IMG/VR virus record: IMGVR_UViG_3300037147_000124
Coordinates: 1 to 64,000 of that record
Origin: an uncultured virus (IMG/VR IMGVR_UViG_3300037147_000124)
Taxonomy: Duplodnaviria > Heunggongvirae > Uroviricota > Caudoviricetes
Direction: 5' to 3' (one strand)
Length of the DNA stretch: 64,000 nt
The notes under the pieces were generated by a model that saw only the letters and a list, made by a program, of their open reading frames with translations, made no database searches and had not been told where the DNA came from. This document shows positions 1,159-39,500 of the stretch, in pieces. Position 1 is the first letter of the stretch, and each line of letters opens with the position of its first letter. The position numbers and the translations under genes are program-made.

Positions 1159-1286
1159 TAGTGGGGCCGGGCAGGATTCGAACCTGCGACCTACGGGTTT
1201 GCTCGGCTTTAGCCAGTTGCTGGTTGACCCAACGTGTGGATTGCCTTCAGTTGGCCCGCTGTTCTAACCGCTGAACTACCGGCCCC
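1159..1286 (-). tRNA. tRNA-like RNA with a 57-nt insert replacing the anticodon loop; identity undetermined
   Basis: Acceptor GGGGCCGG/CCGGCCCC; D-arm GTTC-AGCGGTTA-GAAC; anticodon stem GCGGG/CCCGT; variable AGGTC; T-arm GCAGG-TTCGAAT-CCTGC; 3' end ACTA. Confidence 0.85.
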
Positions 1287-4599: not shown

Positions 4600-5697
4600 T
4601 TACGGGGAGGACTTGAAGAATTGGGAGAGAGGAGTCCACGTTCGAGAGACAGTGGCTCTGCAGAACTCCAGGATGCGAACAATACTCCACCTCTGTCTGA
4701 GGACGTCGGAGTAGAAATAACCCAACCAGCCAAGGAGCCAGACTTCCAGATCCAATTGCAGCTCTGGTGTAAGTTCTGGTAACTCCGAGATGCCACGCAT
4801 TCCTTCGAGTGTGGCCAGACTGGTTTCAATCTGGGTTAGTACCTGCTGATAGGGGATCTCCCCGAGTCTCACTTGGCGCAGGTAAGTGCGCAGCGGGTCA
4901 GGAAGCGGAAACGTCAGTTTCCCGGTCGCGAGTAGGGTGATTCCCTCGTTCACGATACGGAGAGCATGAGACGTGGCCTTCCAGTCCACGTTGCTCTCTG
5001 ACGCCTGCTTAGCGCGGCTGCCAAACTTGGCGAGCAGAGCCTCTGCAGTTTGCAGGTTGTAGCGGAAGCTCGACGTATAGGGCAGGATCTTGTCGAGCAG
5101 TTTGATGCAGGGGCGCATGGCGCCCTTACCGGAGGCATCGTACTCCGTAACGTGGAAGTATTCCGGAAACTCCTTCTCAATCAACCGCGCCTTCTCTTCA
5201 AGGAACGGCTGGACCATGAACAAACGCTCATCGGCCCGGAAGCCTTTGAGCAGTTCGATGGTGGCGAGCACAGCATTCAGCCGCTCGCCCTTCAAGGAGT
5301 ACAAACCAGCCTGATCCGCACAGTACCGGGCAATCGCCCGGATCTGTGAGGTCAGAAAGCGCTCGCGCAGTTCATGACAGAACTGGCGGAACCGTGGATC
5401 GTAGATCGTCTGCTCGGCCCCATTGAAGTCGACAGCGAACACCAACTCCAGGGCATAGCTCTGACCGCCCATGAAGTCCCGCGCCAGGATGTGGAGCGGG
5501 ATGTTCTCGACATCAATGTGCTCGGCCGAGTTCTTTCCGGTGCCGGTCTTGGTGGACCGGTACTTGTTCTTGGGCGCACGGCCCAGCAGGAGATCCGAGA
5601 ACTTCGGCAGGATCACGTGCTTGATGTCACGGTCAGAGGTAGGAATGGTCGTGCCGTACAGGCTCGACCCGTACAGGCAACTAAAGAGGGTTCGCAA
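4600..5697 (-). CDS. DNA polymerase beta superfamily nucleotidyltransferase (T4 NrdC.11-like)
   Basis: Motif LYGSSLYG...SDRD; C-terminal WKATSHALR; TTG start after AGGAGG. Confidence 0.8.
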   Translation of the reverse strand: MRTLFSCLYGSSLYGTTIPTSDRDIKHVILPKFSDLLLGRAPKNKYRSTKTGTGKNSAEHIDVENIPLHILARDFMGGQSYALELVFAVDFNGAEQTIYDPRFRQFCHELRERFLTSQIRAIARYCADQAGLYSLKGERLNAVLATIELLKGFRADERLFMVQPFLEEKARLIEKEFPEYFHVTEYDASGKGAMRPCIKLLDKILPYTSSFRYNLQTAEALLAKFGSRAKQASESNVDWKATSHALRIVNEGITLLATGKLTFPLPDPLRTYLRQVRLGEIPYQQVLTQIETSLATLEGMRGISELPELTPELQLDLEVWLLGWLGYFYSDVLRQRWSIVRILEFCRATVSRTWTPLSQFFKSSP

Positions 5698-6040
5698 CGA
5701 CAACCTCCTGGGAAAGATGGGAGTCAATCCCCTTCTGGATATTGGCGACGGGCTGCATCCCGGTCAGAGTAGCCAGCTTGTTCTCGCCGTCGAACAGGAT
5801 CAGGGTAGGAACCCCGCGGACGTTGTAGGAAGCTGCCCGGTGATTGGTCAGGTCGACGTCGTAATAAAGCACGTTGACCACGCCGGCGTTCTGCTTGGCG
5901 ATGACCTCGACATTCACTCGGATCTGCTCGCACGGGCCACACCACGCCGCTCCGAAAAGCACCAGGGTAAGGCCATCCGCTTTGCCTACGGCGTCCGACC
6001 AGGTGGTGTCGGTCACGCTTCCAATCAGGCTCTTCGCCAT
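5681..6040 (-). CDS. trxA: thioredoxin
   Basis: WCGPC active site; VRGVPTLILF. Confidence 0.92.
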   Translation of the reverse strand: MAKSLIGSVTDTTWSDAVGKADGLTLVLFGAAWCGPCEQIRVNVEVIAKQNAGVVNVLYYDVDLTNHRAASYNVRGVPTLILFDGENKLATLTGMQPVANIQKGIDSHLSQEVVVANPL

Positions 6041-6048
6041 GGTTCTCC

Positions 6049-6396
6049 TTAGTACCCGAGCACCGTCAGTTCCTTCAGGAACCGGTTGATGCAAGTCTGT
6101 TTCAGATCGCGTTCCACGCTCTGGTTGGTGGTGCAATAGACGGCCGCCAGCAGATCGACGAACGCCTTCCGTAGCGACTTGGTCCTGGGATCCGGCTCAT
6201 TGCTGAGCAGGCCGGAGACAATGCCACCTTGTTCCGGCGTCAGTTCGTCGCCGAAAAGACGACGGACTTCGCGGCACACTGGAATCAGACCTGGATCGCT
6301 GCTCCCGAAATGCTGGATGCGTAACTGCTCTGCCAGGGCCAGCAGACGGATAGATTTCACCCGCCGCCTATAACTCGTCTTCGCCACGCTTCTCAT
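6049..6396 (-). CDS. hypothetical protein
   Basis: GGAGG RBS; tiled ORF. Confidence 0.6.
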   Translation of the reverse strand: MRSVAKTSYRRRVKSIRLLALAEQLRIQHFGSSDPGLIPVCREVRRLFGDELTPEQGGIVSGLLSNEPDPRTKSLRKAFVDLLAAVYCTTNQSVERDLKQTCINRFLKELTVLGY

Positions 6397-6900
6397 TTAC
6401 CCTCCGACACGGTGTTGCACGATGATCTCGTTGTTGCCGAATGCTGTATGCCAGCCGCGTTTATCGCCAGAACAACAGGGTAAACAGAACGTCCGTTCGC
6501 CATCTTCGTTCGGCTCAGCCTCCACCAGAGAGGGATACTTGCGCCGAACGGCTGCGAGCTTTTCCTCATCCGTCATAGACGGACTTCCGATCGGGATGAA
6601 CTGACCGAACAAAGTTGCCATCGTCCAGTGCATGTTGTCCTGAAACCCGAAACCGAAGCTGTAACTACTCTTCCGCCTACGAATCTCGAAGTGCCCATTG
6701 TGGGCCAGATTGGCCACACCCTCTGGGTCTGCACCGGTACCAGGCTTGTAAGCGCGGTACATGGACCCGGCGACGAACGTCGGATCCATCTTGCGAACAA
6801 ACTGGGAGAAGGACGAGCTGTAACTATCGCCTAGAGACTGCACCGCCATTGCCCCACTTGGCTTGAAGTAAGCCCGTACTTCTCCCGATTTGCGTCGCAC
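6397..6900 (-). CDS. hypothetical protein
   Basis: tiled ORF. Confidence 0.6.
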   Translation of the reverse strand: MRRKSGEVRAYFKPSGAMAVQSLGDSYSSSFSQFVRKMDPTFVAGSMYRAYKPGTGADPEGVANLAHNGHFEIRRRKSSYSFGFGFQDNMHWTMATLFGQFIPIGSPSMTDEEKLAAVRRKYPSLVEAEPNEDGERTFCLPCCSGDKRGWHTAFGNNEIIVQHRVGG

Positions 6901-6902
6901 GT

Positions 6903-7841
6903 TTAGACCTTTCCTGAAGCGAGCTTCTTCTGCCTACCAGCAGACAAACCCTTCTTGCCGGCCAGCTTGAGTGCTTCCATTGCTGCGTCGAACTGCGCCT
7001 TGACGTCACCGGAGATCCTGACTTCGTCCTTCTCGAACGTCTTCAGCATTTCCATGGCAGCTTCGCTGTCGCCGAACTGTACCTGCTCCGCCACACGGCG
7101 GTTCAGAGCCGAGAAGCCAGCCGAGCGCTCCACATATTCCTTGACCACCTTGATGACCGCGTCCGACAGGCCAGGAAGGCCGTCGTAGAGGAACTTGTCG
7201 ATCTTGGTGTCCAGGCTGCGACCTTCGTCTCCGATGTCGTCCAGCTTGCTCAGCAGGGCAAGCTTCTGCTTCTCGCGGAGTTTGACGTTCTCGCGGAACG
7301 TCGCCAGGGTCATCGTCTGATCCAGGTCGTCCATGTCCAGCGGGCCGGTCAGGCCTTCGGACTCCTCGAAGAGTTCCTTGCCGCGCTTGAGCAGCTTGGA
7401 ACGCTTCTCGATCATCAGAGCCACTTCCGGGCTGATGATGCGAACCGCCTCATTCAGACCAGGCAACTGGTTGATGATGTCGGACGCACGCAGGGCAGCG
7501 ATCGCCTCCAGCTCCGTGGTCGGCCGGCCGCCCACGAACTTGCGGTAGTTCTGATAGCTCGGGGTCCCGTACGCGCCTTGGGGCTCGAACAGATCCTCTG
7601 GTGTGGAGCACCACGAATCCTTGAGCGGCTTGATGTGCTTGTCGGAGATGAAATGCCTGTCCTTGGCCTTGTTCACGATCTGCCTGGCGGTCGCGAGGAG
7701 AATGAAACGCGCGACACGGATGCGGTCGTTGAAGGTCTTGACGAACGTGGCCTTCTTGTCCTCGCTCCAGGTCGACAGCTGGTCATTGCTCAGCTGCGCG
7801 GTGAGCGCGGTTATATCGTTGGCTTGAGTATCCTGTGACAT
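6903..7841 (-). CDS. hypothetical helical/coiled-coil protein
   Basis: AAGGA RBS before MSQDTQ; strong codon bias. Confidence 0.75.
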   Translation of the reverse strand: MSQDTQANDITALTAQLSNDQLSTWSEDKKATFVKTFNDRIRVARFILLATARQIVNKAKDRHFISDKHIKPLKDSWCSTPEDLFEPQGAYGTPSYQNYRKFVGGRPTTELEAIAALRASDIINQLPGLNEAVRIISPEVALMIEKRSKLLKRGKELFEESEGLTGPLDMDDLDQTMTLATFRENVKLREKQKLALLSKLDDIGDEGRSLDTKIDKFLYDGLPGLSDAVIKVVKEYVERSAGFSALNRRVAEQVQFGDSEAAMEMLKTFEKDEVRISGDVKAQFDAAMEALKLAGKKGLSAGRQKKLASGKV

Positions 7842-7854
7842 GTATTCCTTTCGG

Positions 7855-9063
7855 TTATGCTGCGATGAGGTGAGTGGGCTTGTCCTCGCCCTGGCCATCG
7901 ATGTAGAAGACGTCCCGGCCGTGAGGCCGAACGATCTTCCAGAGAGCCTCATGGGCCTCCCAGATCCGGTTGTCCATCATCATCATGGCGATCGGGCCCA
8001 GGACCATGTCCCGTTCGATCACCAGGCGATAGAACTCCCGGTCATCCTTGACCTCGGCGCGCAATGGTGTAATCCAGGCCAGAACATCCAGCGCCTTACA
8101 GATCTGGAAGTGAAAAGCCTGATAGAGTCTCCTCTGCCATTCCTCGATCCAGGTCTTGAAGTGAGGCGGCAACTGCGACTGCAGGTGCGTCGGCCTCAAC
8201 CATGGCTTGAGCGGATCGCCCATCTGTTCCCAGATCATCTGGGGCGTCACATTGGTGACCAGGCGATGCAGCCGGAGATACTCCTCGAGCTTGATCTTCA
8301 CCTTGAGCGGGGGTTGTCCGCCGCGGCGGACTGAGACCACATAACCCTCACGGGTCAGGTCCTTATCCTGCCTGCAGGCCATCAGAGTCTTACCCGAGAA
8401 GGCAGGCACTACGCGGCACCATGGTTTCCCCTTGGCGCCTGCGTTCAGCTCCTTCCAGAGGCCTTCCAGTTGCCAGTGGCGCAACTCGTCACCGGTGTCG
8501 TTCATGACGGTCGTCAAAAGCACCAGGGCCTCGTAGTCGTAAGGAATCACGATGCGGAGATGCTTGGCGACGATCTCAACGATCAAGGTCAATCCCTTGG
8601 GGATGCACTCGACCATGCCATACTTGACGAACTTCTGGAACTTGGCAGTCGCCCAGATCGCGCCGTCCGAGGTGAACGACCCGCGGGTGGCCACACCCCA
8701 GTGCTCCTTGTAGTTCCAGACGATGCCCATCTGGCCATCGATTTTGTCGGTGAACTCCAGCTCGTTGCCGTAGGCCCGGGCAATGCCCAGGACGAACTCC
8801 TCTGAGAATTCCAATAGTCCTTGGCCAACGATGTCGACCGTCTGGCCCAGGTTGAAGAACTTCGGTTGCGGACGCGCGATGACCTCATCGGTATCATCGA
8901 TGATCAGACCGCGGCAGAAGCAGATCTCCGTGCTCCAACGCTCATCGATCGTAGCCTTATGGGTATAGTTGAAGATCCGTAACGGCAGAGTCGGGTGGTG
9001 TTGAATACCGATGTAACCATTGGCGATCTCCTGCTTGAGTGCGTCCGTCCAAATCATCTTCAT
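7855..9063 (-). CDS. RNA ligase, T4 Rnl1-like
   Basis: IFNYT, CRGLI, PKFFN, adenylation motif DKIDG, ATRGSF, EGYV, VKIK. Confidence 0.9.
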   Translation of the reverse strand: MKMIWTDALKQEIANGYIGIQHHPTLPLRIFNYTHKATIDERWSTEICFCRGLIIDDTDEVIARPQPKFFNLGQTVDIVGQGLLEFSEEFVLGIARAYGNELEFTDKIDGQMGIVWNYKEHWGVATRGSFTSDGAIWATAKFQKFVKYGMVECIPKGLTLIVEIVAKHLRIVIPYDYEALVLLTTVMNDTGDELRHWQLEGLWKELNAGAKGKPWCRVVPAFSGKTLMACRQDKDLTREGYVVSVRRGGQPPLKVKIKLEEYLRLHRLVTNVTPQMIWEQMGDPLKPWLRPTHLQSQLPPHFKTWIEEWQRRLYQAFHFQICKALDVLAWITPLRAEVKDDREFYRLVIERDMVLGPIAMMMMDNRIWEAHEALWKIVRPHGRDVFYIDGQGEDKPTHLIAA

Positions 9064-9392
9064 ATTCGTGTCTGCCCCTTTGCGTGGCGAATGACCTTGT
9101 TCCCGTACGGGCTCATCTTCTGTTCCTGAGCTGTCAGGTCGTACTTGTGATCCTTCCAGGCCTCGCATGCATGAACAGTTTCAGCATGAACATGGCCATC
9201 CGGGATGTCGCCAAACCAACGCCTCACGTGGCACCCACAGGCCAGTCGGGCCTCAATGCACATCGTCACGACTCGGCGAGTGGCCTTGATCTTGAGCTTG
9301 GGACGACGCGGACACTTGTTCAAATGCTTGAACAGAGGTGTCCTGTCTAAGACCGCACCGCAGTGCGGGCAGTGCTCTCGGCAGCCCTTCAT
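9060..9392 (-). CDS. Cys/His-rich putative zinc-binding protein
   Basis: CPHC...H...C motif; tiled ORF. Confidence 0.55.
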   Translation of the reverse strand: MKGCREHCPHCGAVLDRTPLFKHLNKCPRRPKLKIKATRRVVTMCIEARLACGCHVRRWFGDIPDGHVHAETVHACEAWKDHKYDLTAQEQKMSPYGNKVIRHAKGQTRI

Positions 9393-9622
9393 CAGGCGGC
9401 CGCGGGTGTGGTGTTGATGGTGTCCAGCATGCCGCCGAACCGCTCCATCAGCGTCTGGGGACGCGTGCCGCGGGATGCAGCTGCTACCAGTCGGAGTTCG
9501 ATTGCACCCTGGTCAAAGGTCACGATCTCGTCAGCAGACGAGGGTTGGGGTGCCATGTTGTGTTCGAGATACTCTTCACGAGCCTCCGCAGAGGCGAATC
9601 CAGCGAAACTACGGTTGTCCAT
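9392..9622 (-). CDS. hypothetical protein
   Basis: AAGGAG RBS. Confidence 0.6.
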   Translation of the reverse strand: MDNRSFAGFASAEAREEYLEHNMAPQPSSADEIVTFDQGAIELRLVAAASRGTRPQTLMERFGGMLDTINTTPAAA

Positions 9623-9826
9623 GTTGCTCCTTCGGTCGTCGGTGCCAGAGCCTCAATATCCATGCAGGAATGAAGGCTCCTTTCTTGTGTGCAGATACGC
9701 GAAGCGGTATGTGCAGGTCATCGGCGATCGCTCGGATCGCCGCGTAAGCGGGATGCTCCCGGAATTCCTTGATCGCCGATTCTTCGCTATCGGCGATGCC
9801 CTCGATGAGGATCATGCGGATCTCCA

Positions 9827-11116
9827 TTAGGAGACCGCCATTGGCGAGTTCCGAAGCTGTGTCGTTACAAACGCCACGGCTTCCTCACGCGTTTTGATCT
9901 TCTCTTCGAGCTGTTCGTCCTCGAGATTGTGCAGAACGAAGCCGAACGCAGGACTGGGCTTATAACCCAGGGCAATCAAGTCATCGCCGTTGAGCAGTAC
10001 CTTGGGATAAGTCCCAGGCAAACCCGCCGCGCTCATGAACTGATCCACACGATGAAATGCCCGTTGGCCCCCGGTGTAAGCCGGCCGCGCGAAGTAATCG
10101 TGCAGCGCCACCTGACGAATCAGGTCATAGTCCGCATCGCGGCGATAGCGCCGCTGTGCTGCCAGGTTCCAGTCCGGGATGCAGCTCCAAACCTGTGCCT
10201 TGGTGATGATGTTAGTGATCTGGGCAGCATCCGCCGTCGAGAACTTCAGACCCAGCAGCGCGTTCTTCCGTGCCGTGGTGCCGAGATCCAGGAACAGCAG
10301 AGACAATGCGATCAGGACGTGATCCTTGACGGCCTGACCGTAGGCGCTGGACCAGGAGATTGCAGGCATCTGGTTGAGGCGACGCAGAACCCTTCCGAAG
10401 TCGGTATCTAGCTCCGGCAGCAGGTAGTCCAGCAGGTTCGAGAGCAGAAGCAGTTCCAGGGCGCGTACGGCCCGGGGCTGGCTCAGCATCGCGATCAGCT
10501 CCTCGCGCTTCCGTTCTCCGCTGATCTCAGCGAGTAAGGGAGCATTGACGCGCATCGCGCCCCAGGTGGGCTCGTCAATCTGGAAGTCCAGCCGGGCGGC
10601 AAATCGGATTGCCCGGAGTAAACGCAGGGCGTCTTCTTCAAAGCGCCGGTTGGGATCCCCGATGCAGCGGATCTTCTTGTGCGCGATGTCCATGACTCCG
10701 CCGGTGAGATCCACCAGCTCACCGGTCTCGATGTCCAGGGCCAGGGCATTGATGGTGAAGTCCCGCCGCTGAACGTCCTCGGCCAGGGTCTTGCTGTAGA
10801 CCACAGCGTCAGGGTGACGGTGGTCAGAATAGGCGTCCTCGGCGCGGAAGGTGGCGACCTCGAAACTCTCCTCATTGATCGTGACGAGAACGACGCCAAA
10901 CTTAGCGCCTACGGGCTTGGAGCAATCTGGGAAGATTGCCATGACCTCGTCAGGCACTGCGTTGGTGACGATGTCATAGTCTTTGGGGAGATTGGCCAGG
11001 ATACGATCTCGAACGCAACCGCCGATCAGGTAGGCTTCTTTGCCGGCCTTGCGTAGGTGGTAGATCAGCTTCTCGACCGCGACCATACGGACGGTCGGTT
11101 GCATTCTGAGGATCAT
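9827..11116 (-). CDS. cca: CCA-adding tRNA nucleotidyltransferase (class II)
   Basis: GGCVRD, DYD, EVATFR, RRDFTINAL, EDALRLLRAIRF; flexible loop present; no poly(A) polymerase GRRF signature. Confidence 0.92.
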   Translation of the reverse strand: MILRMQPTVRMVAVEKLIYHLRKAGKEAYLIGGCVRDRILANLPKDYDIVTNAVPDEVMAIFPDCSKPVGAKFGVVLVTINEESFEVATFRAEDAYSDHRHPDAVVYSKTLAEDVQRRDFTINALALDIETGELVDLTGGVMDIAHKKIRCIGDPNRRFEEDALRLLRAIRFAARLDFQIDEPTWGAMRVNAPLLAEISGERKREELIAMLSQPRAVRALELLLLSNLLDYLLPELDTDFGRVLRRLNQMPAISWSSAYGQAVKDHVLIALSLLFLDLGTTARKNALLGLKFSTADAAQITNIITKAQVWSCIPDWNLAAQRRYRRDADYDLIRQVALHDYFARPAYTGGQRAFHRVDQFMSAAGLPGTYPKVLLNGDDLIALGYKPSPAFGFVLHNLEDEQLEEKIKTREEAVAFVTTQLRNSPMAVS

Positions 11117-11411
11117 GATTGTTTCACTTTCGGACGAGACATCATCGTTCGCCGGCAGGGACCGATGAACCAGGACCGGTCGAGTTTGTAGATCAACATG
11201 CCGTTTTCACGACAGCATAACTTACGCTCCACAATGGCTCCGTACCCGAGGCTTCGCGCGAGCCGCTTGGCTCGCTGAATCGTTCGGACTGTACGGAGAG
11301 GCGCGTTAGCGCCAGGTGAGAAGACGTCATAACGAAGGGAGCGTTTTGATTCTCTGGACAATTCAACTTCCCTAACTGGCGCCGGGGATTAGCCGACGCC
11401 TTGGATTTGAC

Positions 11412-12626
11412 CTACTCGAGGTCGGTATCGGAGCAGCGGACGGGAATGACCCGTACGCCATGTTCACGCCACATCTGAACCACACAGAGCCTGTCGTCAA
11501 TCGCAAATGCGATCTCCGCTTTGCAGGCCAGCATCTGTTCGAGGATCGTGGCTTTCACATCGACATCGGTGATGTGGGCCGGTTCTTTGCGCATGAACAA
11601 GTGGTCGAACGGCACCATGTGTTTGTCCAGCGACTCCAGGGTCTCGCGACCACAGCAGTTCATGTCGCGGCCGCTGACCAGGATGATCATGAAGCCCAGG
11701 GCACTGAGAGAGTGCAGCCAGTTCAGGATGATCTCGACCGGTTCGTCGTTGATGCACTCCTGCAGGAACTTGTAGTGATCCTTCTTGGCTTTGCCTGTGC
11801 CCTGGCAGATCCCGCATGGCATAGCGCCCGGGTCGTCCAATGCCTTCCCGGTGCCATAACATGGAGTGCAGATCCCGCTCACCAGGTGCTTCCGGTGATC
11901 CAGGTTGAACAGCGTGCCGTCGAGGTCACAGACCACAGCCGGATGGCCGCTCAGATCCAGGCGCCCGCTCAGAAGGTACTGCCGCTCGATCACCGGGCGG
12001 CCGACCTGTCTGCCTTCGAAGCGCATGGCGTCGCGGGCAATGCAATCCGCGATCGGGGTGTCGATGAACTTCACCTCGGCCTTGCGGAAGCACAGCTCTT
12101 CGGCGTAATCGAGCCACATCTGCCGGTGACCCGGGGTCAGGTTGGTGTCGTCGATGATGACATCCCTACCCTGTTCCCGCGCCGCACGGACAATGGCCTT
12201 CTCAGCCTCGATGATGAACTTCTCCTTCGAGGCAGCCCAACGAGGGATGGTCATCCGACGGATGTCGTCCCGGTTGATCCGGACCGCATGCCCGTTGTCC
12301 TGGATGTGCTTGAACGCAACCGTGGACTTGCCGCTCCCGGAAGGGCCGGACAGGATGGTCATTCGGCCAATTGGAGTCGTGCCGACCTTCAGGAAGATCG
12401 CCTTCTCTGCCTCATGTGTCAGCTCACCGCCAACCAGTCTAAGACCAGTCGCACCATCGGGTAACACGTGACGGATGCCTTCCGGCGTCATCACGTATTC
12501 GTACGCCCCGTAGGGCTCGCCGATGGCTTTTACGTCGAGGAACGTGCCGCCAAAGTAGTCCGGGATCTCGATCCGGCCGGTCTTGAATGTTGCTGGTCTC
12601 ATTACTCGTACCTCGTTGCTGTTCAT
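11412..12626 (-). CDS. polynucleotide 5'-kinase / 3'-phosphatase (T4 PseT-like)
   Basis: P-loop GPSGSGKST, INRDDIR, DDTNL; HAD motifs DLDGT, SGR, IDDR. Confidence 0.92.
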   Translation of the reverse strand: MNSNEVRVMRPATFKTGRIEIPDYFGGTFLDVKAIGEPYGAYEYVMTPEGIRHVLPDGATGLRLVGGELTHEAEKAIFLKVGTTPIGRMTILSGPSGSGKSTVAFKHIQDNGHAVRINRDDIRRMTIPRWAASKEKFIIEAEKAIVRAAREQGRDVIIDDTNLTPGHRQMWLDYAEELCFRKAEVKFIDTPIADCIARDAMRFEGRQVGRPVIERQYLLSGRLDLSGHPAVVCDLDGTLFNLDHRKHLVSGICTPCYGTGKALDDPGAMPCGICQGTGKAKKDHYKFLQECINDEPVEIILNWLHSLSALGFMIILVSGRDMNCCGRETLESLDKHMVPFDHLFMRKEPAHITDVDVKATILEQMLACKAEIAFAIDDRLCVVQMWREHGVRVIPVRCSDTDLE

Positions 12627-33834: not shown

Positions 33835-34086
33835 TTAGCGCCGCTTGGCCTGCCGCTTCTGCGGCTTGCCGAACAGCACCTCGGAGACCGCCGCGTCGAA
33901 AGCGCGCGTGAAGGGCATGGTCTTGAGGGTGTGCTGCAGCTTGGGAGCCAAGCCTGGCAGCGCAGTGTGCGCGGAACGAACCACGGTGTTGCGACCAACA
34001 TCGGTGGTAGCCGCCGCAAGGTTGTGGACAAAGCCGTCACGAATCAGCTGACGGCCATCGGGGTTGAGGGTGGCAACATTGAGCAT
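33835..34086 (-). CDS. hypothetical protein
   Basis: GGAGG RBS. Confidence 0.65.
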   Translation of the reverse strand: MLNVATLNPDGRQLIRDGFVHNLAAATTDVGRNTVVRSAHTALPGLAPKLQHTLKTMPFTRAFDAAVSEVLFGKPQKRQAKRR

Positions 34087-34099
34087 GGAACTACCTCCG

Positions 34100-34415
34100 T
34101 GGGATAAACAACATCAGGTGAGTGGAGCAGGGCTCAACACTCAGAACTATGCGGCGTCAACACTAGGCTCGTAAGACAGTCGGCCAGCCCCGAAGGGCCC
34201 CGTAATGTCCGGAGAGGGTTTGCGTATGTAGCCGCTTCACATGCTGAATCTGACATCTTGCCGTGCCGTACCAGATCGGTAGTCCCGCCACAAGAACCGG
34301 CTCAAGTCCGGGTTATGACGGCCGCCTGGGCAGCGCTGTCGCTAGTCAAGATTCGAGGGACATATCTCGCCCTCATTGCAGGTGGAAAGGGTCGGGGTGA
34401 TTGGCTCACCCCTTG
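34100..34415 (-). ncRNA. candidate structured RNA A (contains duplicated motif, copy 1)
   Basis: No convincing ORF; hairpins GGGGTGA/TCACCCC, GAGGG/CCCTC and a C(UUCG)G loop; ~105-nt motif shared with 35273-35372. Confidence 0.55.
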
Positions 34416-34805
34416 AAGCCTTACAGCTTGGCCGGCGGCGTGGAACGCACCGGATTGACCACAACAGGCTTGGGGCCTGTGTAGTCCGTCCCGTACTCAC
34501 GACGGAACGAGGTTGGCATACAGCCAGCCAGCATGGTGCGCTGACTGGTCTCAAGCCGCCGCGCAAAACCTGCGGTGGCGCAACGGGGCGTAACTGCATG
34601 ACGAACAGCTGCCATGGCAATCTCCTTGAAGCGTTGAATTGTGGGTGGGCGTTACAGGATTGAAACTACCGGCTCTGCCAGGGCAGGACCGGGATGTCGG
34701 GGAAGTCGTTGATCAGCTCTTCGATTGAGCCAACGTAGCGATGAAGCCGGCCGCCACAGAGGACGGCCAGCTCACCAGCAGGCGACATGAATGCCGCGGT
34801 GGCCA

Positions 34806-35228
34806 CTAGAACCGAACCCAGTGAGGACGGATCGTGCTGTCAGCACTGAGGAATTCCTCATGGAATGAACCACCGAAGCGGCAGGTGATGGCATAGTCCA
34901 CGAACTCCTTGGCCTCTCGAAGCGAGGCTGTCGGAACGATCCGGCGAACGTGCTTGATAGCCACGATCTTGTTATGCCGCATACTGTCGAAGGTCTGGAT
35001 GAAGATGGCCAGGCTCTTCTGCGCATCCGAGGTCAGCGCTTCCAGCGGATTGCCGGGAAAGACGGCAGGCGGAGGAGTGGGAAAGCCGAGCATGAGGTTC
35101 TGAGCGAACGCCATGGTGGAACGAGCTTGGGGCTCGTCGAGACCCTCGACTGTGAGGTCGAAGTGCGAGGGCGCACCGGCCGGAGCGAAAGGCGCTTCCG
35201 ACCGAGAGAGGTGAATTGAACCGAGCAT
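34806..35228 (-). CDS. protein with ribosomal protein L7/L12 C-terminal-like domain
   Basis: KIVAIKHVRRIVPTASLREAKEFVD. Confidence 0.65.
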   Translation of the reverse strand: MLGSIHLSRSEAPFAPAGAPSHFDLTVEGLDEPQARSTMAFAQNLMLGFPTPPPAVFPGNPLEALTSDAQKSLAIFIQTFDSMRHNKIVAIKHVRRIVPTASLREAKEFVDYAITCRFGGSFHEEFLSADSTIRPHWVRF

Positions 35229-35272
35229 GGATGCTCTCCTTGTTGCAGGGTGTTGAAACAAACGGTGGTGCA

Positions 35273-35372
35273 GTGAGCGGAGCCAGGCTCAACGCTCGAA
35301 ACTTGCGGCCCTGTACCCGACAGGGCCTGCAGTGGTGCGACCGCGGGCGTCAGAGATACACCCAGGGTTTGC
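35273..35372 (-). ncRNA. candidate structured leader RNA B (duplicated motif, copy 2)
   Basis: Stem GAGCG/CGCTC covaries with GAGTG/CACTC in copy 1. Confidence 0.55.
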
Positions 35373-35420
35373 TACGTGGAGAATCAGTAGAAAGGTTGGA
35401 GGATGGGGGTAGAGAAACCC

Positions 35421-35438
35421 ATCGGGTGAAACTCTTAG
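35421..35438 (-). promoter_or_regulatory. class I motif copy (CTAAGAGTTTCACCCGAT)
   Basis: recurring motif. Confidence 0.65.
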
Positions 35439-35722
35439 GCGTGGGCACACTGTACGGCTTGAACGCCGTACTGCGTAATCACGAAGGCAGTCCAGGGCTT
35501 GACACGATCAAGAAGAGCCTGCAGCTGATCCCGGACAGCGAGATAGAAGGGGCCCATGCACAGCCTGAGTCCTTCAACAGCGGTGGCCTGAGCGTTGAGA
35601 TAATCTCCAAGCGCTTCATACTTCAGAGCTTCCTCGAAGTACAGCTCACCACGGGTCTTGGCCATCGACTTGATGGCCCTGCTAACGCAGAGCATGTGCT
35701 CTTCGGTTGGGGTGCGGTACAT
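35435..35722 (-). CDS. hypothetical protein
   Basis: AAGGAGG RBS before MYRTP. Confidence 0.65.
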   Translation of the reverse strand: MYRTPTEEHMLCVSRAIKSMAKTRGELYFEEALKYEALGDYLNAQATAVEGLRLCMGPFYLAVRDQLQALLDRVKPWTAFVITQYGVQAVQCAHA

Positions 35723-35771
35723 AGTCCCTCCTTTCAAGGGTGTAAACGCAAAAGTTCGGCGGCGTCAGAGA

Positions 35772-35954
35772 TCAAACGGAAGGAGCGAGGATCTCGTCTA
35801 CAAGAGCACGAAGCTCAGCTAAACGATCCTGGTTATTGTTCAACCAGGCAATGAAGACCTCTTCCTTCCACTGAGGGTCAGTCAGAGAACTGACTGGACC
35901 CTGAGTCGCTGATTCCGGTATACCCAACTGCTCGTTGGTGGGTTCGATCTGCAT
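35772..35954 (-). CDS. hypothetical protein
   Basis: GGAGG RBS before MQIEP. Confidence 0.6.
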   Translation of the reverse strand: MQIEPTNEQLGIPESATQGPVSSLTDPQWKEEVFIAWLNNNQDRLAELRALVDEILAPSV

Positions 35955-36229
35955 ACTGCCTCCGTTCAAAGCTTGAGTGGGGCTGTGAGTACAGCCCATA
36001 AGGGATAGCCCTTAGGGTGATTGCTATATATAGATAGGCACTGAATCCACAACGGACTATCTGCAGGTTGTCTTACACCATGCATGTTATAGCTGTAATT
36101 GGGCTTACACTGCCTTTATGGGCACAGACCAGGTCTCTCCGTCCTATCAGACATCAGGAAGCTCACGCGTGCGCGCGCTCCAAAGCTCTGCTAAGCAGGC
36201 TAACCTGCTGATCTGGCTATGGTTATGCT

Positions 36230-36530
36230 GTGATCCTGTGGAGTGGGCTCTGAATGCCTGTTGCGCTAGCACTACTGCATAGCTGAGCATGCTCCAAAGA
36301 GCCCGCCTCTCGGCATCCGCCTGTGCGGATGCGAGATGCTGGCGGAGGAGCGACCCCCGGAGGGGTGGCGACTACATGTCAGTGCGACCTGTGAGTTCAC
36401 GTTGGACGCCCAGGTTTCCCCGGTCAACGCCCAGCGCTACTGTCACAGACACTGCGCTTGGAGCGGTATGCGCTCCCTCAGCCACAGGATTGTCCTGCAG
36501 CTGAGGCAGAGCGTACTGCTCTGCCCTTGA
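36230..36530 (-). ncRNA. candidate multi-helix RNA C directly downstream of the polymerase gene
   Basis: 9-bp closing helix ATCCTGTGG/CCACAGGAT enclosing five or more stems, with GAAA and UCCG tetraloops. Confidence 0.65.
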
Positions 36531-36544
36531 ATCAGGTGGTGCGA

Positions 36545-39500
36545 TTAGAACACTACGTCGGCGAGTTCTCCGGCTGAGACTGCTTCGGCCAGGTTGGCCT
36601 TGAAGTCGGAGCGGAGTTCAGGGATGGCCTCGGCGATGACGATGACGCCGCCGGCAGACATCGAGTAATAGCCATCCGGCAATGTCGGATGAGCGGTTAC
36701 TGACAGCTGCGAGTCGTTGTCCACATCATGCACGTGGCCATTGGTTGCGCGTACCAGGCGATGGACGGAGGTGCCCTTGAGCATCTCCTTCACCTTGTAC
36801 TTGAGGTGGATGAACGCGACCTGACCGGTCAGGCCCAGTTCCTCCATGCAGTCCATCAGCTCGTTGAGCATCCAGTTGGGGACGCCGTCACCTACGCTGA
36901 TGGTCTTGCCGTCCTCGGACACCAGGGCCTCGGACTCCATCGAGTACACCTTGTTGAGCCACTCGACTGCGATCGAGCGACGCACTTCAGGCGACCAGGC
37001 GCCGCCGCTGATGGAGAGCTTGACGCCCTCCCCTTCGGAGGTGAACTGGTTGAGGTAGAAGTCCCTGAGACCGAGGTGATGCAGTGTGGTGCTGCTCACG
37101 ATACGGCCTTCGGCATCCTTCACATCGATCGGCTCATCCCAGCCATTGGCGATGTTGTCATACGCATCCTCAGACAGCTCGCCCGTGAGGGACTTGGCTG
37201 CTTCGAACTGCGCACGCCACCAGACGCGCAACGCTTTGACGACGTCGGTGATGACATCGCTGCCGGGATAGGCCATGAGCAGCTGCAGAGGCAGCGGCTT
37301 CTTGAAGCTGTGCTCGAGCTGACGGGATTCCTCCATGATTCCCTCATAGTGGTCCTTCAGCTCTTCCAGAGCAGCGCAGACCTCGGTACGGACCAGCAGG
37401 TAGTTGCCTGCTTCGATCCGGTCCTTGGGTGCACGGCCCTGGCGGACGTAGGATGCCGGGAAGATGAGAGTCTTCTCCGACAGCTTGGCCTCCTGGCACA
37501 GTTCGGTCACCATCTTCTTGTTGCCCTTACCCTGCTGCAGGTAGTCGATGACCATGTCCGAGTTGCTCGCTGCGCGCTTGCACAGGAAGGGCTGGCGCAC
37601 CTTCATGAACGTGATGCACAGCTGGACGAAGTCCTCCACCTCCGGCTTGTAGTCCACGGGGATGAATTCCCAGAACCACTCCGGGCTGTTGATCTTGACG
37701 TCTTCCAACGACATGGCATGGAAGCCCTTCGGCACGATGTATGTGCCGTTGATGAGGGAGTCCAGGATCACGACCACGTTGTCGCCCGACAGCATGTTGT
37801 CGAGCGTGAGGCGGTTGATGAAGGTACCCAAGCTCTCACGATACTGCGTGAAGTGCTTGAGGTCCCGACGGAAGCAGTTCCAGTTCCACTCGTCCCCGAT
37901 ACCCTCATGGGTGAGGCGGTTACGTGCGGCCCAGTGGCTGTCCTTCTTCTCTTCAACCGAGATCTTCGGCTGCTTCGGATACTCCTGGATCTTGGCTGCA
38001 ACTCGGAGGACATACACCGAGTTCCAGAAGACCCAGATCGAGTCATCCATATCACCACCGTTGAGATAGCTCAGCTGTTCAGCGATCCGTTCGAGCAGGA
38101 AGCAACGGCCTTGGCCCTTGTACTTCTTCAGCTCTGCCGGGATGTAGTTGAGGAATACTAATGCTTCTGCACTGCAGGCATTGGGATTACGACCTGCTGT
38201 CACCAACACACCGTCTGGTGCATCCGGCATGCAGTTGACGAAGACAGGAATGCCCAAGCGATCCGAGCACATCTGAGCACGTGCCATGATGTGATCCGGA
38301 ACCTTGGACAGGGTGAGATCCACGATGCGCTCATCGTCGACGAATACGGTCGGCGGTGGTGCGACGTAGACACGACGCGCCCACTCATGAGGCATGGGCA
38401 CACGGCCCCGACGTAAGTCGAGGATGTTGTCGAACAGGTGACGAGTGACGCGACGGAAGCCCACAGGCATAGCCTTGGTTCCGATCCCGTCCTCCGCCAT
38501 GCGCACCAGCGCCCAGCGGTTCTCGCTCTCATCGTTGCAGGAGTTGACGAATGCACTGATCTCATCGAGCAGCTTGCCTTCGTCGCTGCCGAACAGGATA
38601 GCCGCCGCACGGTCCATATACTTGATACCAGTGGTGGCTGCCAAGCCCTTGGCACCCAGGCCCATGTTGCCCATGGTCTGGTTGTCGAGGGTGAGGTCAT
38701 GCTCCTCAGCATCCGAGAGTGCACCCAGGAAGACGCGGTCATCCACGAAGCGAACCTCCTTCTTCGAACCGAAGAGATAGAGGTCGTAGCTGCGCATGTG
38801 CGGCATCTTCCAGTAAATGCCCTTGCCTTCGCCGAACTCGCCGACGAGGGTAAGCGCCTTGTTGAAGTACCCGGGGATGTTGGAGATACCCATCCCATCG
38901 ATGGTGGCGGTTTCAGCTGCGTTGAAACGGGTCATGTCCGCATCGAGAATGCGGATAACCCGGCCGTTGTCCAGCTCGATCTCGTAGGCGGTGCCTTCGG
39001 GAACGATCGTACGGTCAATGATGTGACCCCGCATCGAGGACTGATGCGGTGCCAGGAAGCGGCGCAACCGCTTGGCTGCCTTCGCGTCACTGGATACCCA
39101 GATACCCAGATCCTTGAAGCTGCGTGCCTTGCAGTTGTCGGATACGAAGAGAGCGGTGCCCTCATCGATCACGTTGCCGTAGATGGGGACGTAGCGAATG
39201 CCCGTCTGCTTGTCGGTCCAGCCGGAGCGCACCAGCGACCAGGCCTTGTTGGCCATGTGCTTGGTGGCGTTCTTGCCGGATGCTTCGAAGCTGACGAAGC
39301 CGTAGGTGACGCCTTCTGCCAGGAGGTCATCGAGAGCCTGACGGGTCTCGCTGTCATCGATGGCAGTCTTCGAGTCGAAGGATGCGCCTTCCTTGCGGAT
39401 ACGGCGCGTGATCTCCTTCAGGTTGACCTCACCCTCAGCACCGTGGGATACGGCGCTCAGCACCAGCTGGAATGCCAGCTTGCTGGTGGGTTCGGTTGGG

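Follow-up and report, generated by a model that had tools for sequence, protein, structure and literature searches.

A structured stretch behind a QDE-1-like RNA polymerase gene of a tailed phage, a proposed non-coding trailer, and the covarying RNA found in the same slot of related prophages

Directly behind the gene of a QDE-1-like RNA polymerase, on the minus strand of an uncultured tailed virus, lies a hairpin-rich stretch of about 300 nt (positions 36230-36530), which is best called a phage-encoded structured non-coding trailer that falls in no Rfam family. The DNA analysed (the window, 64,000 nt) is the opening part of a virus record that is 74 kb long, IMG/VR IMGVR_UViG_3300037147_000124. 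In the same slot, related prophages of Acidobacteriaceae carry another structured RNA, described here by the covariance model R1, which has strong support from covariation, probably represents a new RNA class linked to this polymerase gene and constitutes a stronger discovery than the element of the window. For the latter, the reading favoured here, tentatively and with somewhat less than even confidence, is that of a structured non-coding 3' trailer that is co-transcribed with the polymerase gene, ends at a GC hairpin and replaces the RNA of the relatives. Phage single-subunit two-barrel RNA polymerases have barely been studied, YonO of SPbeta being the sole one examined here, and in the Acidobacteriaceae prophages (44 relatives and the window) every such gene has a large structured RNA behind it and then a control block present in a single copy per locus.

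The stretch had been singled out in an earlier note, made from the letters alone, as a multi-branched RNA of no recognised family in a gap of about 590 nt. The gap does measure 590 nt, from the polymerase stop codon (36545-36547) to the next start equipped with a ribosome-binding site (ATG 35952-35954), and the first hairpin begins 19 nt past the stop codon. On the minus strand, the folding energy of 36230-36530 is -151.5 kcal/mol, compared with -118.0 +/- 5.9 for shuffled sequences (z -5.69), and none of 100 shuffles folds as well. The same count, 0/100, is obtained for the plus strand (z -4.55) and for the whole gap region of 561 nt (z -4.76). Corrected for GC content, the stretch has the lowest energy of 426 minus-strand windows of 300 nt (-3.3 sd), 425 of which lie on a 150-nt grid while the stretch itself was added by hand; the nearest grid window, 36301-36600, ranks third in GC-corrected stability.

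All nine arm pairs proposed in that note are found, each once and at its given place on the minus strand, and the GAAA and UCCG tetraloops read as such on this strand alone, as had been claimed. Three tandem hairpins (36525-36505, 36504-36478 and 36476-36460) are followed by a branched domain with the GAAA, UCCG and GCAUCCGC hairpins. The ensemble probability is 0.91-0.997 for five local hairpins, 0.24-0.29 for the CAGUG/CUGUGA helices and 0.06 for GGGCUCU/AGAGCCC. The 9-bp helix thought to close the structure has a probability of 0.000, because a local 12-bp hairpin (0.96) takes up its 5' arm, and when the fold of the note is enforced it reaches -151.2 kcal/mol against an optimum of -161.9, i.e., 10.7 kcal/mol worse. 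Of the multi-branched architecture, then, the branched domain is still predicted, closed by another helix than the one proposed. Both the 12-bp stem and the CCGGG/CCUGG stem include G-U pairs, which fit the minus strand only.

No known RNA family accounts for the stretch. When the whole window was compared with Rfam 15 (4227 models) at gathering score, the sole match was a tRNA at 1163-1285, and a permissive scan of 35700-36800 (E up to 10) added only two matches, at 16 bits against cut-offs of 90 bits. Nor is there a coding signal: a small open reading frame (ORF) was looked for and found no support, since none of the six ORFs of the gap (47-71 aa) has a Pfam match above cut-off or a PHROG match. 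Moreover, in a 99% identical relative (L003), two 1-nt insertions and an altered ATG break all three ORFs that overlap the stretch.

Protein-guided scans with the polymerase led to 4 viral loci (about 41% identity), 61 metagenome loci and 11 genome loci. The first 330 nt past the stop codon were aligned for 27 non-redundant loci, from which R1 was built. These relatives have in common a multi-branched fold of 57 pairs and about 290 nt, starting 10-25 nt after the stop, in which 96.6% of the alignment cells are paired. Compensatory changes affect 26 of the 57 pairs, whereas column shuffles give 14.6 +/- 1.6 (none of 500 reaches the observed value) and slid controls 6-7. Some changes keep G-U pairs (e.g., CCAGG/CCUGG versus CUGGG/CCUGG), and these make sense only in an RNA of the gene strand.

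R1 matches 37 of the 67 loci searched, namely each of the 37 viral or metagenome loci in which DNA continues past the gene; 27 of these supplied the model and the other 10 are identical to them in the first 330 nt. It is also present in the 7/7 genome loci that reach the 3' end of the gene, so that a structured RNA adjoins the polymerase gene in 44/44 related loci with downstream DNA. There is one copy per genome in 4/4 host genomes, and of 151 genomes sampled from the family of the host just 1 contains R1. The RNA loci (L008-L057 and L076-L085) occupy the first ~330 nt past the polymerase stop (e.g., L019:4068-4390), and the RNA is found nowhere but beside the QDE-1-like polymerase gene of Acidobacteriaceae prophages. 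The fold contains invariant junction nucleotides, even across polymerases just 47-49% identical, a pattern typical of ligand- or protein-binding RNAs. None of the 4227 Rfam models matched the loci of nine relatives. A hammerhead reading of the CUGAUGA-stem-GAA motif of these RNAs was rejected, because no Rfam hammerhead model matches the nine relatives, CUGAU pairs with AUCGG and no stem III is possible; the neighbouring AAGG/CCUU helix covaries in the R1 consensus fold.

The stretch of the window resembles R1 in its setting. Both lie on the same strand, in the same slot after the stop codon of an orthologous polymerase gene (10-25 nt in R1, 19 nt in the window), both have a similar size and layout, with tandem hairpins and then a branched domain, and both are followed by the same GC hairpin and a conserved 23-mer. 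In sequence, the RNA of the window is not detectably homologous to R1. An nhmmer search with the relatives' RNA found nothing in the gap of the window, and the R1 covariance model with default filters had no match in the window. With filters off over 35800-36700, the gene-strand score of R1 within the stretch does not exceed 0.6 bits, its other scores being 4.8 bits on the opposite strand (the best) and 3.0 bits at 35820-35859, outside the stretch. In a near-identical genome of 214 kb, 99% complete, R1 gives 0 matches. The invariant core CCUGAUGACC...GGGAAUCGGC is missing from the gap, and when the core CCUGAUGAC..GG-loop-CC.GGGAAUCGGC was sought there, only UGACCGGG-GAAA-CCUGGG resembled it. 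Word sharing with R1 is marginal for 8-mers, ranking in the top 4% when compared with 1258 background windows, and does not reach significance for 9- and 10-mers; what is common to both is the CCGGG-tetraloop-CCUGG hairpin and a few short words only. In the opposite direction, R2, a model built from the RNA of the window and run against 24 relatives' loci and the window and then against four virus records, finds only itself, although R2 derives from three near-identical sequences and hence has little reach. Taking into account that clades only 47-49% identical in polymerase still have R1 in common, replacement seems likelier than gradual drift in the long-branch lineage of the window. The slot filled by an apparently unrelated structured sequence would thus amount to a natural swap experiment.

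Beyond the stretch comes a shared block (element B, 36126-36189), which contains the only DNA blocks common to the window and the relatives of 41% identity (36128-36189 by BLAST). Its GC hairpin has a core CGCGC-GCAC-GCGUG, followed by a weak U/G-rich tail, and is conserved in 14/14 aligned lineages including the window. With up to 3 mismatches allowed, the 23-mer is matched once in the window, where 0.01 matches would be expected, and the window copy agrees with the consensus used at 18/23 positions; it gives a single match in each of 37/73 loci, always past the GC hairpin. The idea that the 23-mer is a repeated phage promoter was rejected, since the 64 kb contain a single copy, as does each matching locus. 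In the relatives, variable inserts are seen in the stem before the GC hairpin. An HNH endonuclease ORF (L019:4460-4800, also in L030, L039-L043 and L057) lies between the conserved start of the GGAGCG stem and the GC hairpin, and L047, a close relative in this region, is without it. The GC hairpin of L047 was called terminator-like. No sigma-70 promoter consensus was found in the gap of the window.

With a conserved hairpin downstream and no promoter of its own, a trailer ending at that hairpin is the simplest model for the stretch. Transcription would continue past the polymerase stop codon (36545), and the emerging RNA would fold, with three hairpins in tandem and then a branched domain (36525 to about 36245). 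The conserved GC hairpin (36181-36157) would mark the end of the transcript, reached either directly or by trimming. Once folded, the trailer could shield the polymerase mRNA from 3' exonucleases, or persist as a stable RNA derived from the 3' untranslated region (3'-UTR), while the 23-mer just beyond the hairpin would be part of the transcription unit that follows. In the lineage of the window, this trailer may have replaced the conserved RNA of about 290 nt of related Acidobacteriaceae prophages, with no recognisable descent. It is by inference that we speak of co-transcription, of a 3' end at the hairpin and of a role in protection or regulation. The stretch is present in RNA libraries, whose contigs agree weakly with the trailer model. 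In library X19, the sole contigs on 34000-39000 cover 36157-36455 (depth 8). The contigs of X10 cover the gap and its flanks, most of 34000-37386 at similar depth, and are uninformative on relative abundance, and X20 has no contig on 36026-38567, uncovered parts proving nothing.

Several observations weigh against this trailer. The X10 contigs continue through the GC hairpin to 35983, and contigs of RNA libraries may include DNA and cannot define transcript ends. The GC hairpin of the window has a poor U tract and was not called a terminator in 35700-36700 (the rule being >=5 U in 8 nt), and neither was that of L045. The good folding of the plus strand (z -4.55) leaves room for a palindrome cluster acting at the DNA level. 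The three near-identical copies of the locus (99-100%), with about 10 differences, leave no covariation basis for the window's fold, the substitution density in the 99% relative is not below that of the flanking genes, and a C to G change at 36334-36335 breaks a predicted pair beside the GCAUCCGC stem. Finally, the many invariant unpaired nucleotides of R1 hint at a job more specific than end protection, and the window shares none of them.

Some of these points would also suit a neutral or decaying spacer of GC-rich palindromes, for instance the remains of an ancestral RNA or of an insertion, which is considered quite unlikely. Such a spacer would be in keeping with the lack of a homologue outside the 99%-identical copies, with two strands that both fold well, with an 8-mer sharing with R1 that is marginal only and with adjoining DNA that is a mosaic hot spot. 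However, the stretch has the most stable fold in 64 kb, its size of ~300 nt and its placement match those of the relatives' functional RNA, and stable GNRA and UNCG loops as well as G-U pairs are found on the transcribed strand. Furthermore, over its first 197 nt the 99% relative shows no difference, against 9-14 differing sites per 200 nt in parts of the polymerase gene. The palindromes could likewise form cruciforms in an element that acts as DNA, such as an origin of replication or a site of packaging or recombination. The alternating CG tract of the block, its unique AT palindrome, the folding of both strands and a peak of cumulative GC skew near 38-40 kb could be brought together in this way. 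Nevertheless, the skew peak is broad and off-centre from the gap, no iterons or direct repeats have been seen, and the G-U-preserving covariation of the relatives makes sense only as RNA, so that an element of this kind is highly improbable.

How the RNA comes to be transcribed can be approached through L019, a mosaic locus whose polymerase is 82% identical to that of L009 and 48% to that of L024, and whose RNA is 92% identical to that of L024 over 281 nt. The recombination junction lies ~10 nt 5' of the first helix, so near to it that the RNA would be a module without an upstream promoter of its own and would have to be read from the polymerase transcript. This bears on the proposal that the downstream minus-strand operon begins with the stretch, as its 5' leader or first non-coding product, and is driven by the phage polymerase from a single promoter beside its gene, as in Bacillus phage SPbeta; although unlikely in our judgement, this is a serious alternative. 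In the yonO region of SPbeta (Forrest et al. 2017, PMC5467207), a single-subunit two-barrel polymerase gene likewise precedes a same-strand gene-free gap, in which a non-coding RNA (unannotated, upstream of yonK) and the start of a long transcription unit are encoded; there, the YonO promoter is reported as not yet determined. The order on one strand is yonO, stem-loop, yonN, a gene-free gap of 1.68 kb and yonK, and in this gap a DUF3800-VIII motif of Rfam is found (47.5 bits versus a cut-off of 40.2; SPbeta NC_001884, locus L089, 59409-59474, minus strand). In the window, too, the gap follows the polymerase gene on the same strand and contains motifs that are single-copy in 64 kb, as a single promoter would be.

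SPbeta differs from the window in that yonN and an annotated stem-loop intervene, in the length of its gap and in the DUF3800-VIII motif, the window's gap having no Rfam match; the polymerases are distant relatives only, and R1 reaches at most 6.8 bits against the SPbeta gap. As to the leader itself, the junction of L019 leaves ~10 nt, so that a promoter for the RNA would need to sit within coding sequence that is only 48% conserved. A terminator-like hairpin stands between the RNA and the downstream genes, and in the relatives 100-500 nt of variable DNA, once with an HNH gene, separate the RNA from the 23-mer. In addition, the nameable downstream genes of the window are those of nucleic-acid enzymes and not structural genes.

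The product of the adjacent gene had been taken for a polymerase in the earlier note, an identification that a family profile and weak matches to RdRP bear out. Alone, the 1041-aa protein of the window has no Pfam, PHROG or PDB match. Pfam RdRP (PF05183) is weakly matched by 5/12 aligned relatives (best E 0.0049, below cut-off), and the profile of 12 relatives finds only QDE-1 chains in the PDB (3/3; E 1.5e-4 to 3.7e-4; profile positions 435-537), in an alignment that sets the invariant GGDMD-D against GGDYDGD of QDE-1 and opens a gap of one residue. With an AlphaFold model of low confidence (pLDDT 57.5), Foldseek places QDE-1 at ranks 1-11 (E 1.3e-5 to 3.2e-3), followed by RDR2 chains, at TM-scores of ~0.14. 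On the profile matches to QDE-1 alone and the weak PF05183 matches, the gene product is assigned to the single-subunit two-barrel RNA polymerases of the QDE-1/YonO branch. According to a passage of PMC7824862, two-barrel polymerases have a metal-binding triad DxDxD. The catalytic motif GGDMDD, invariant in 12/12 relatives, is one residue shorter and holds three aspartates with a spacing unlike that of DxDxD. The window polymerase keeps the residues that are invariant in the family, and it is a long branch, 33-43% identical to all other members.

It could be proposed that the RNA is a dedicated partner of the polymerase, as a bound regulator, a decoy or an RNA template, with two unrelated RNAs in the same role. 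The strict adjacency of RNA and gene in 44/44 loci would be explained, as would the single copy in 4/4 host genomes, the occurrence in 1/151 genomes sampled in the family and the junction nucleotides that stay invariant across polymerases 47-49% identical. Other nucleic-acid enzymes with an adjoining structured RNA form ribonucleoproteins. QDE-1 itself is described in PMC9508822 as accepting RNA as well as DNA templates. However, as L019 illustrates, RNA module and polymerase type are exchanged separately in recombination, and the polymerase of the window retains the invariant residues of its family although its RNA appears unrelated, which leaves such a partnership very unlikely. More specific, and a longer shot still, is the idea that the polymerase works as a ribonucleoprotein with the RNA encoded behind its gene, as a bound regulator or as a template for RNA-templated synthesis, and that the lineage of the window swapped in an unrelated RNA; if true, a two-barrel polymerase with an RNA partner would be seen in a phage for the first time. 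More generally, an RNA that regulated or partnered the polymerase would point to a new way of controlling transcription in phages, whereas an RNA that merely protects the mRNA end would be a modest addition to phage 3'-UTR biology.

As a trailer, the stretch can be compared with other 3'-UTR structures and 3'-UTR-derived small RNAs, such as that of lambda sib retroregulation, which usually consist of one or two hairpins and have less than 100 nt. By analogy with these, it would be structured, placed right after the stop codon, co-transcribed with the gene and ended by a hairpin; it differs from them in its ~300 nt and at least eight helices. ROOL, GOLLD and 6S RNA, all in Rfam, are likewise structured and without coding capacity, the first two being phage- or prophage-borne and the third a polymerase-binding RNA. 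The RNA of the window is smaller than ROOL or GOLLD, no Rfam model matches it or the nine relatives, and the shape of 6S RNA, a single long bulged hairpin, is unlike that of the stretch. In the full-text literature searched, no RNA is described downstream of a YonO- or QDE-1-like phage polymerase, the remark on SPbeta apart.

Table 1. Positions of the structured stretch, its helices and the surrounding features in the 64,000-nt window.
Feature	Position	Strand	Evidence or remark
Hairpin-rich stretch	36233..36525	-	fold z -5.69, helix probabilities, most stable of 426 windows, no Rfam match
Helix GGCAGAGC/GCUCUGCC	36525-36518 with 36512-36505	-	
Local 12-bp hairpin UCAGCUGCAGGA-CAA-UCCUGUGGCUGA, two G-U pairs	36478..36504 (36504-36493 with 36489-36478)	-	probability 0.96; in minimum-energy fold
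Helix AUCCUGUGG/CCACAGGAU (proposed 9-bp closing helix)	36490-36482 with 36241-36233	-	
Helix GGAGCG/CGCUCC	36476-36471 with 36465-36460	-	
Helices CAGUG/CACUG and CUGUGA/UCACAG	36454-36443 with 36394-36380	-	
Hairpin CCGGG-GAAA-CCUGG	36423-36410	-	
Hairpin ACCCC-UCCG-GGGGU	36366-36353	-	
Hairpin GCAUCCGC/GCGGAUGC	36332-36313	-	
Helix GGGCUCU/AGAGCCC	36304-36298 with 36251-36245	-	
Element B, 5' part: conserved GAGCUUUGGAGCGC (36175-36189) and GC hairpin (36157-36181)	36157..36189	-	alignment of 14 lineages
Conserved 23-mer GAUAGGACGGAGAGACCUGGUCU	36126..36148	-	once in window, once per matching locus
AT-only palindrome CTATATATAG	36024..36033	.	1 copy in window; where divergence from L003/L007 begins
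RNA polymerase gene, 1041 aa	36545..39670	-	single-subunit two-barrel, QDE-1/YonO type (assigned); NGGDMDD at residues 537-543
Next gene, 60 aa	35772..35954, ATG 35952-35954	-	GGAGG 35959-35963, 4 nt upstream of ATG

The window contains genes for a terminase, a portal protein, a DNA ligase, an RNA ligase, a polynucleotide kinase and a CCA-adding enzyme and is therefore ascribed to a large tailed phage. The same locus was found, by a protein scan and an exact 22-mer search of viral contigs, in 2 further records with 99-100% identity, one of which, classed as a provirus, is 214.3 kb long with a CheckV completeness of 99%. When viral, metagenome and genome collections were scanned by protein, no locus of 44-99% identity was obtained; the phage DNA database searched had no match to the window locus, and the protein database search with the window polymerase returned 3 matches only. 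Records very close to the window may be omitted by these searches. The sequencing runs that contain the structured stretch are peat and permafrost metagenomes, and relatives of the polymerase gene are located in the chromosomes of metagenome-assembled genomes (MAGs) of Acidobacteriaceae. Two polymerase matches (L076 and L081) lie on one such chromosome, a MAG contig of 3.26 Mb: one is full-length and has the RNA, and the other covers residues 30-539 only, with no RNA within 3 kb. A group I intron in the polymerase gene, suggested by the HNH ORF of the L019 group, was rejected, because the conserved C-terminus is reached just before the stop codon in every clade and the next genes have ribosome-binding sites of their own.

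On the far side of the shared block, the small gene and ~80 nt upstream of it (35772-36030) are swapped for unrelated sequence in an otherwise 99%-identical phage (L007:7601-8000; 77-115 differences per 200 nt), and this mosaic junction begins near the CTATATATAG palindrome. The palindrome was discarded as a repeated motif, since the window has a single copy.

Elsewhere in the window, the second most stable GC-corrected fold among the 300-nt windows (-2.87 sd) is that of 5101-5400 on the minus strand, a segment in which ORFs are listed for either strand (the minus-strand one at 4600-5727). The Rfam tRNA model is matched at 1163-1285 (minus strand) over all its 71 positions, with 55.8 bits; 56 nt stand there in place of the 6-nt anticodon loop, ARAGORN calls no tRNA in the window, and the sequence may be a tRNA gene split by an insertion of ~50 nt. 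Near this interrupted tRNA-like gene, at 4600-12626 on the minus strand, lies a cluster of RNA-repair type, with a nucleotidyltransferase, an RNA ligase, a CCA-adding enzyme and a polynucleotide kinase.

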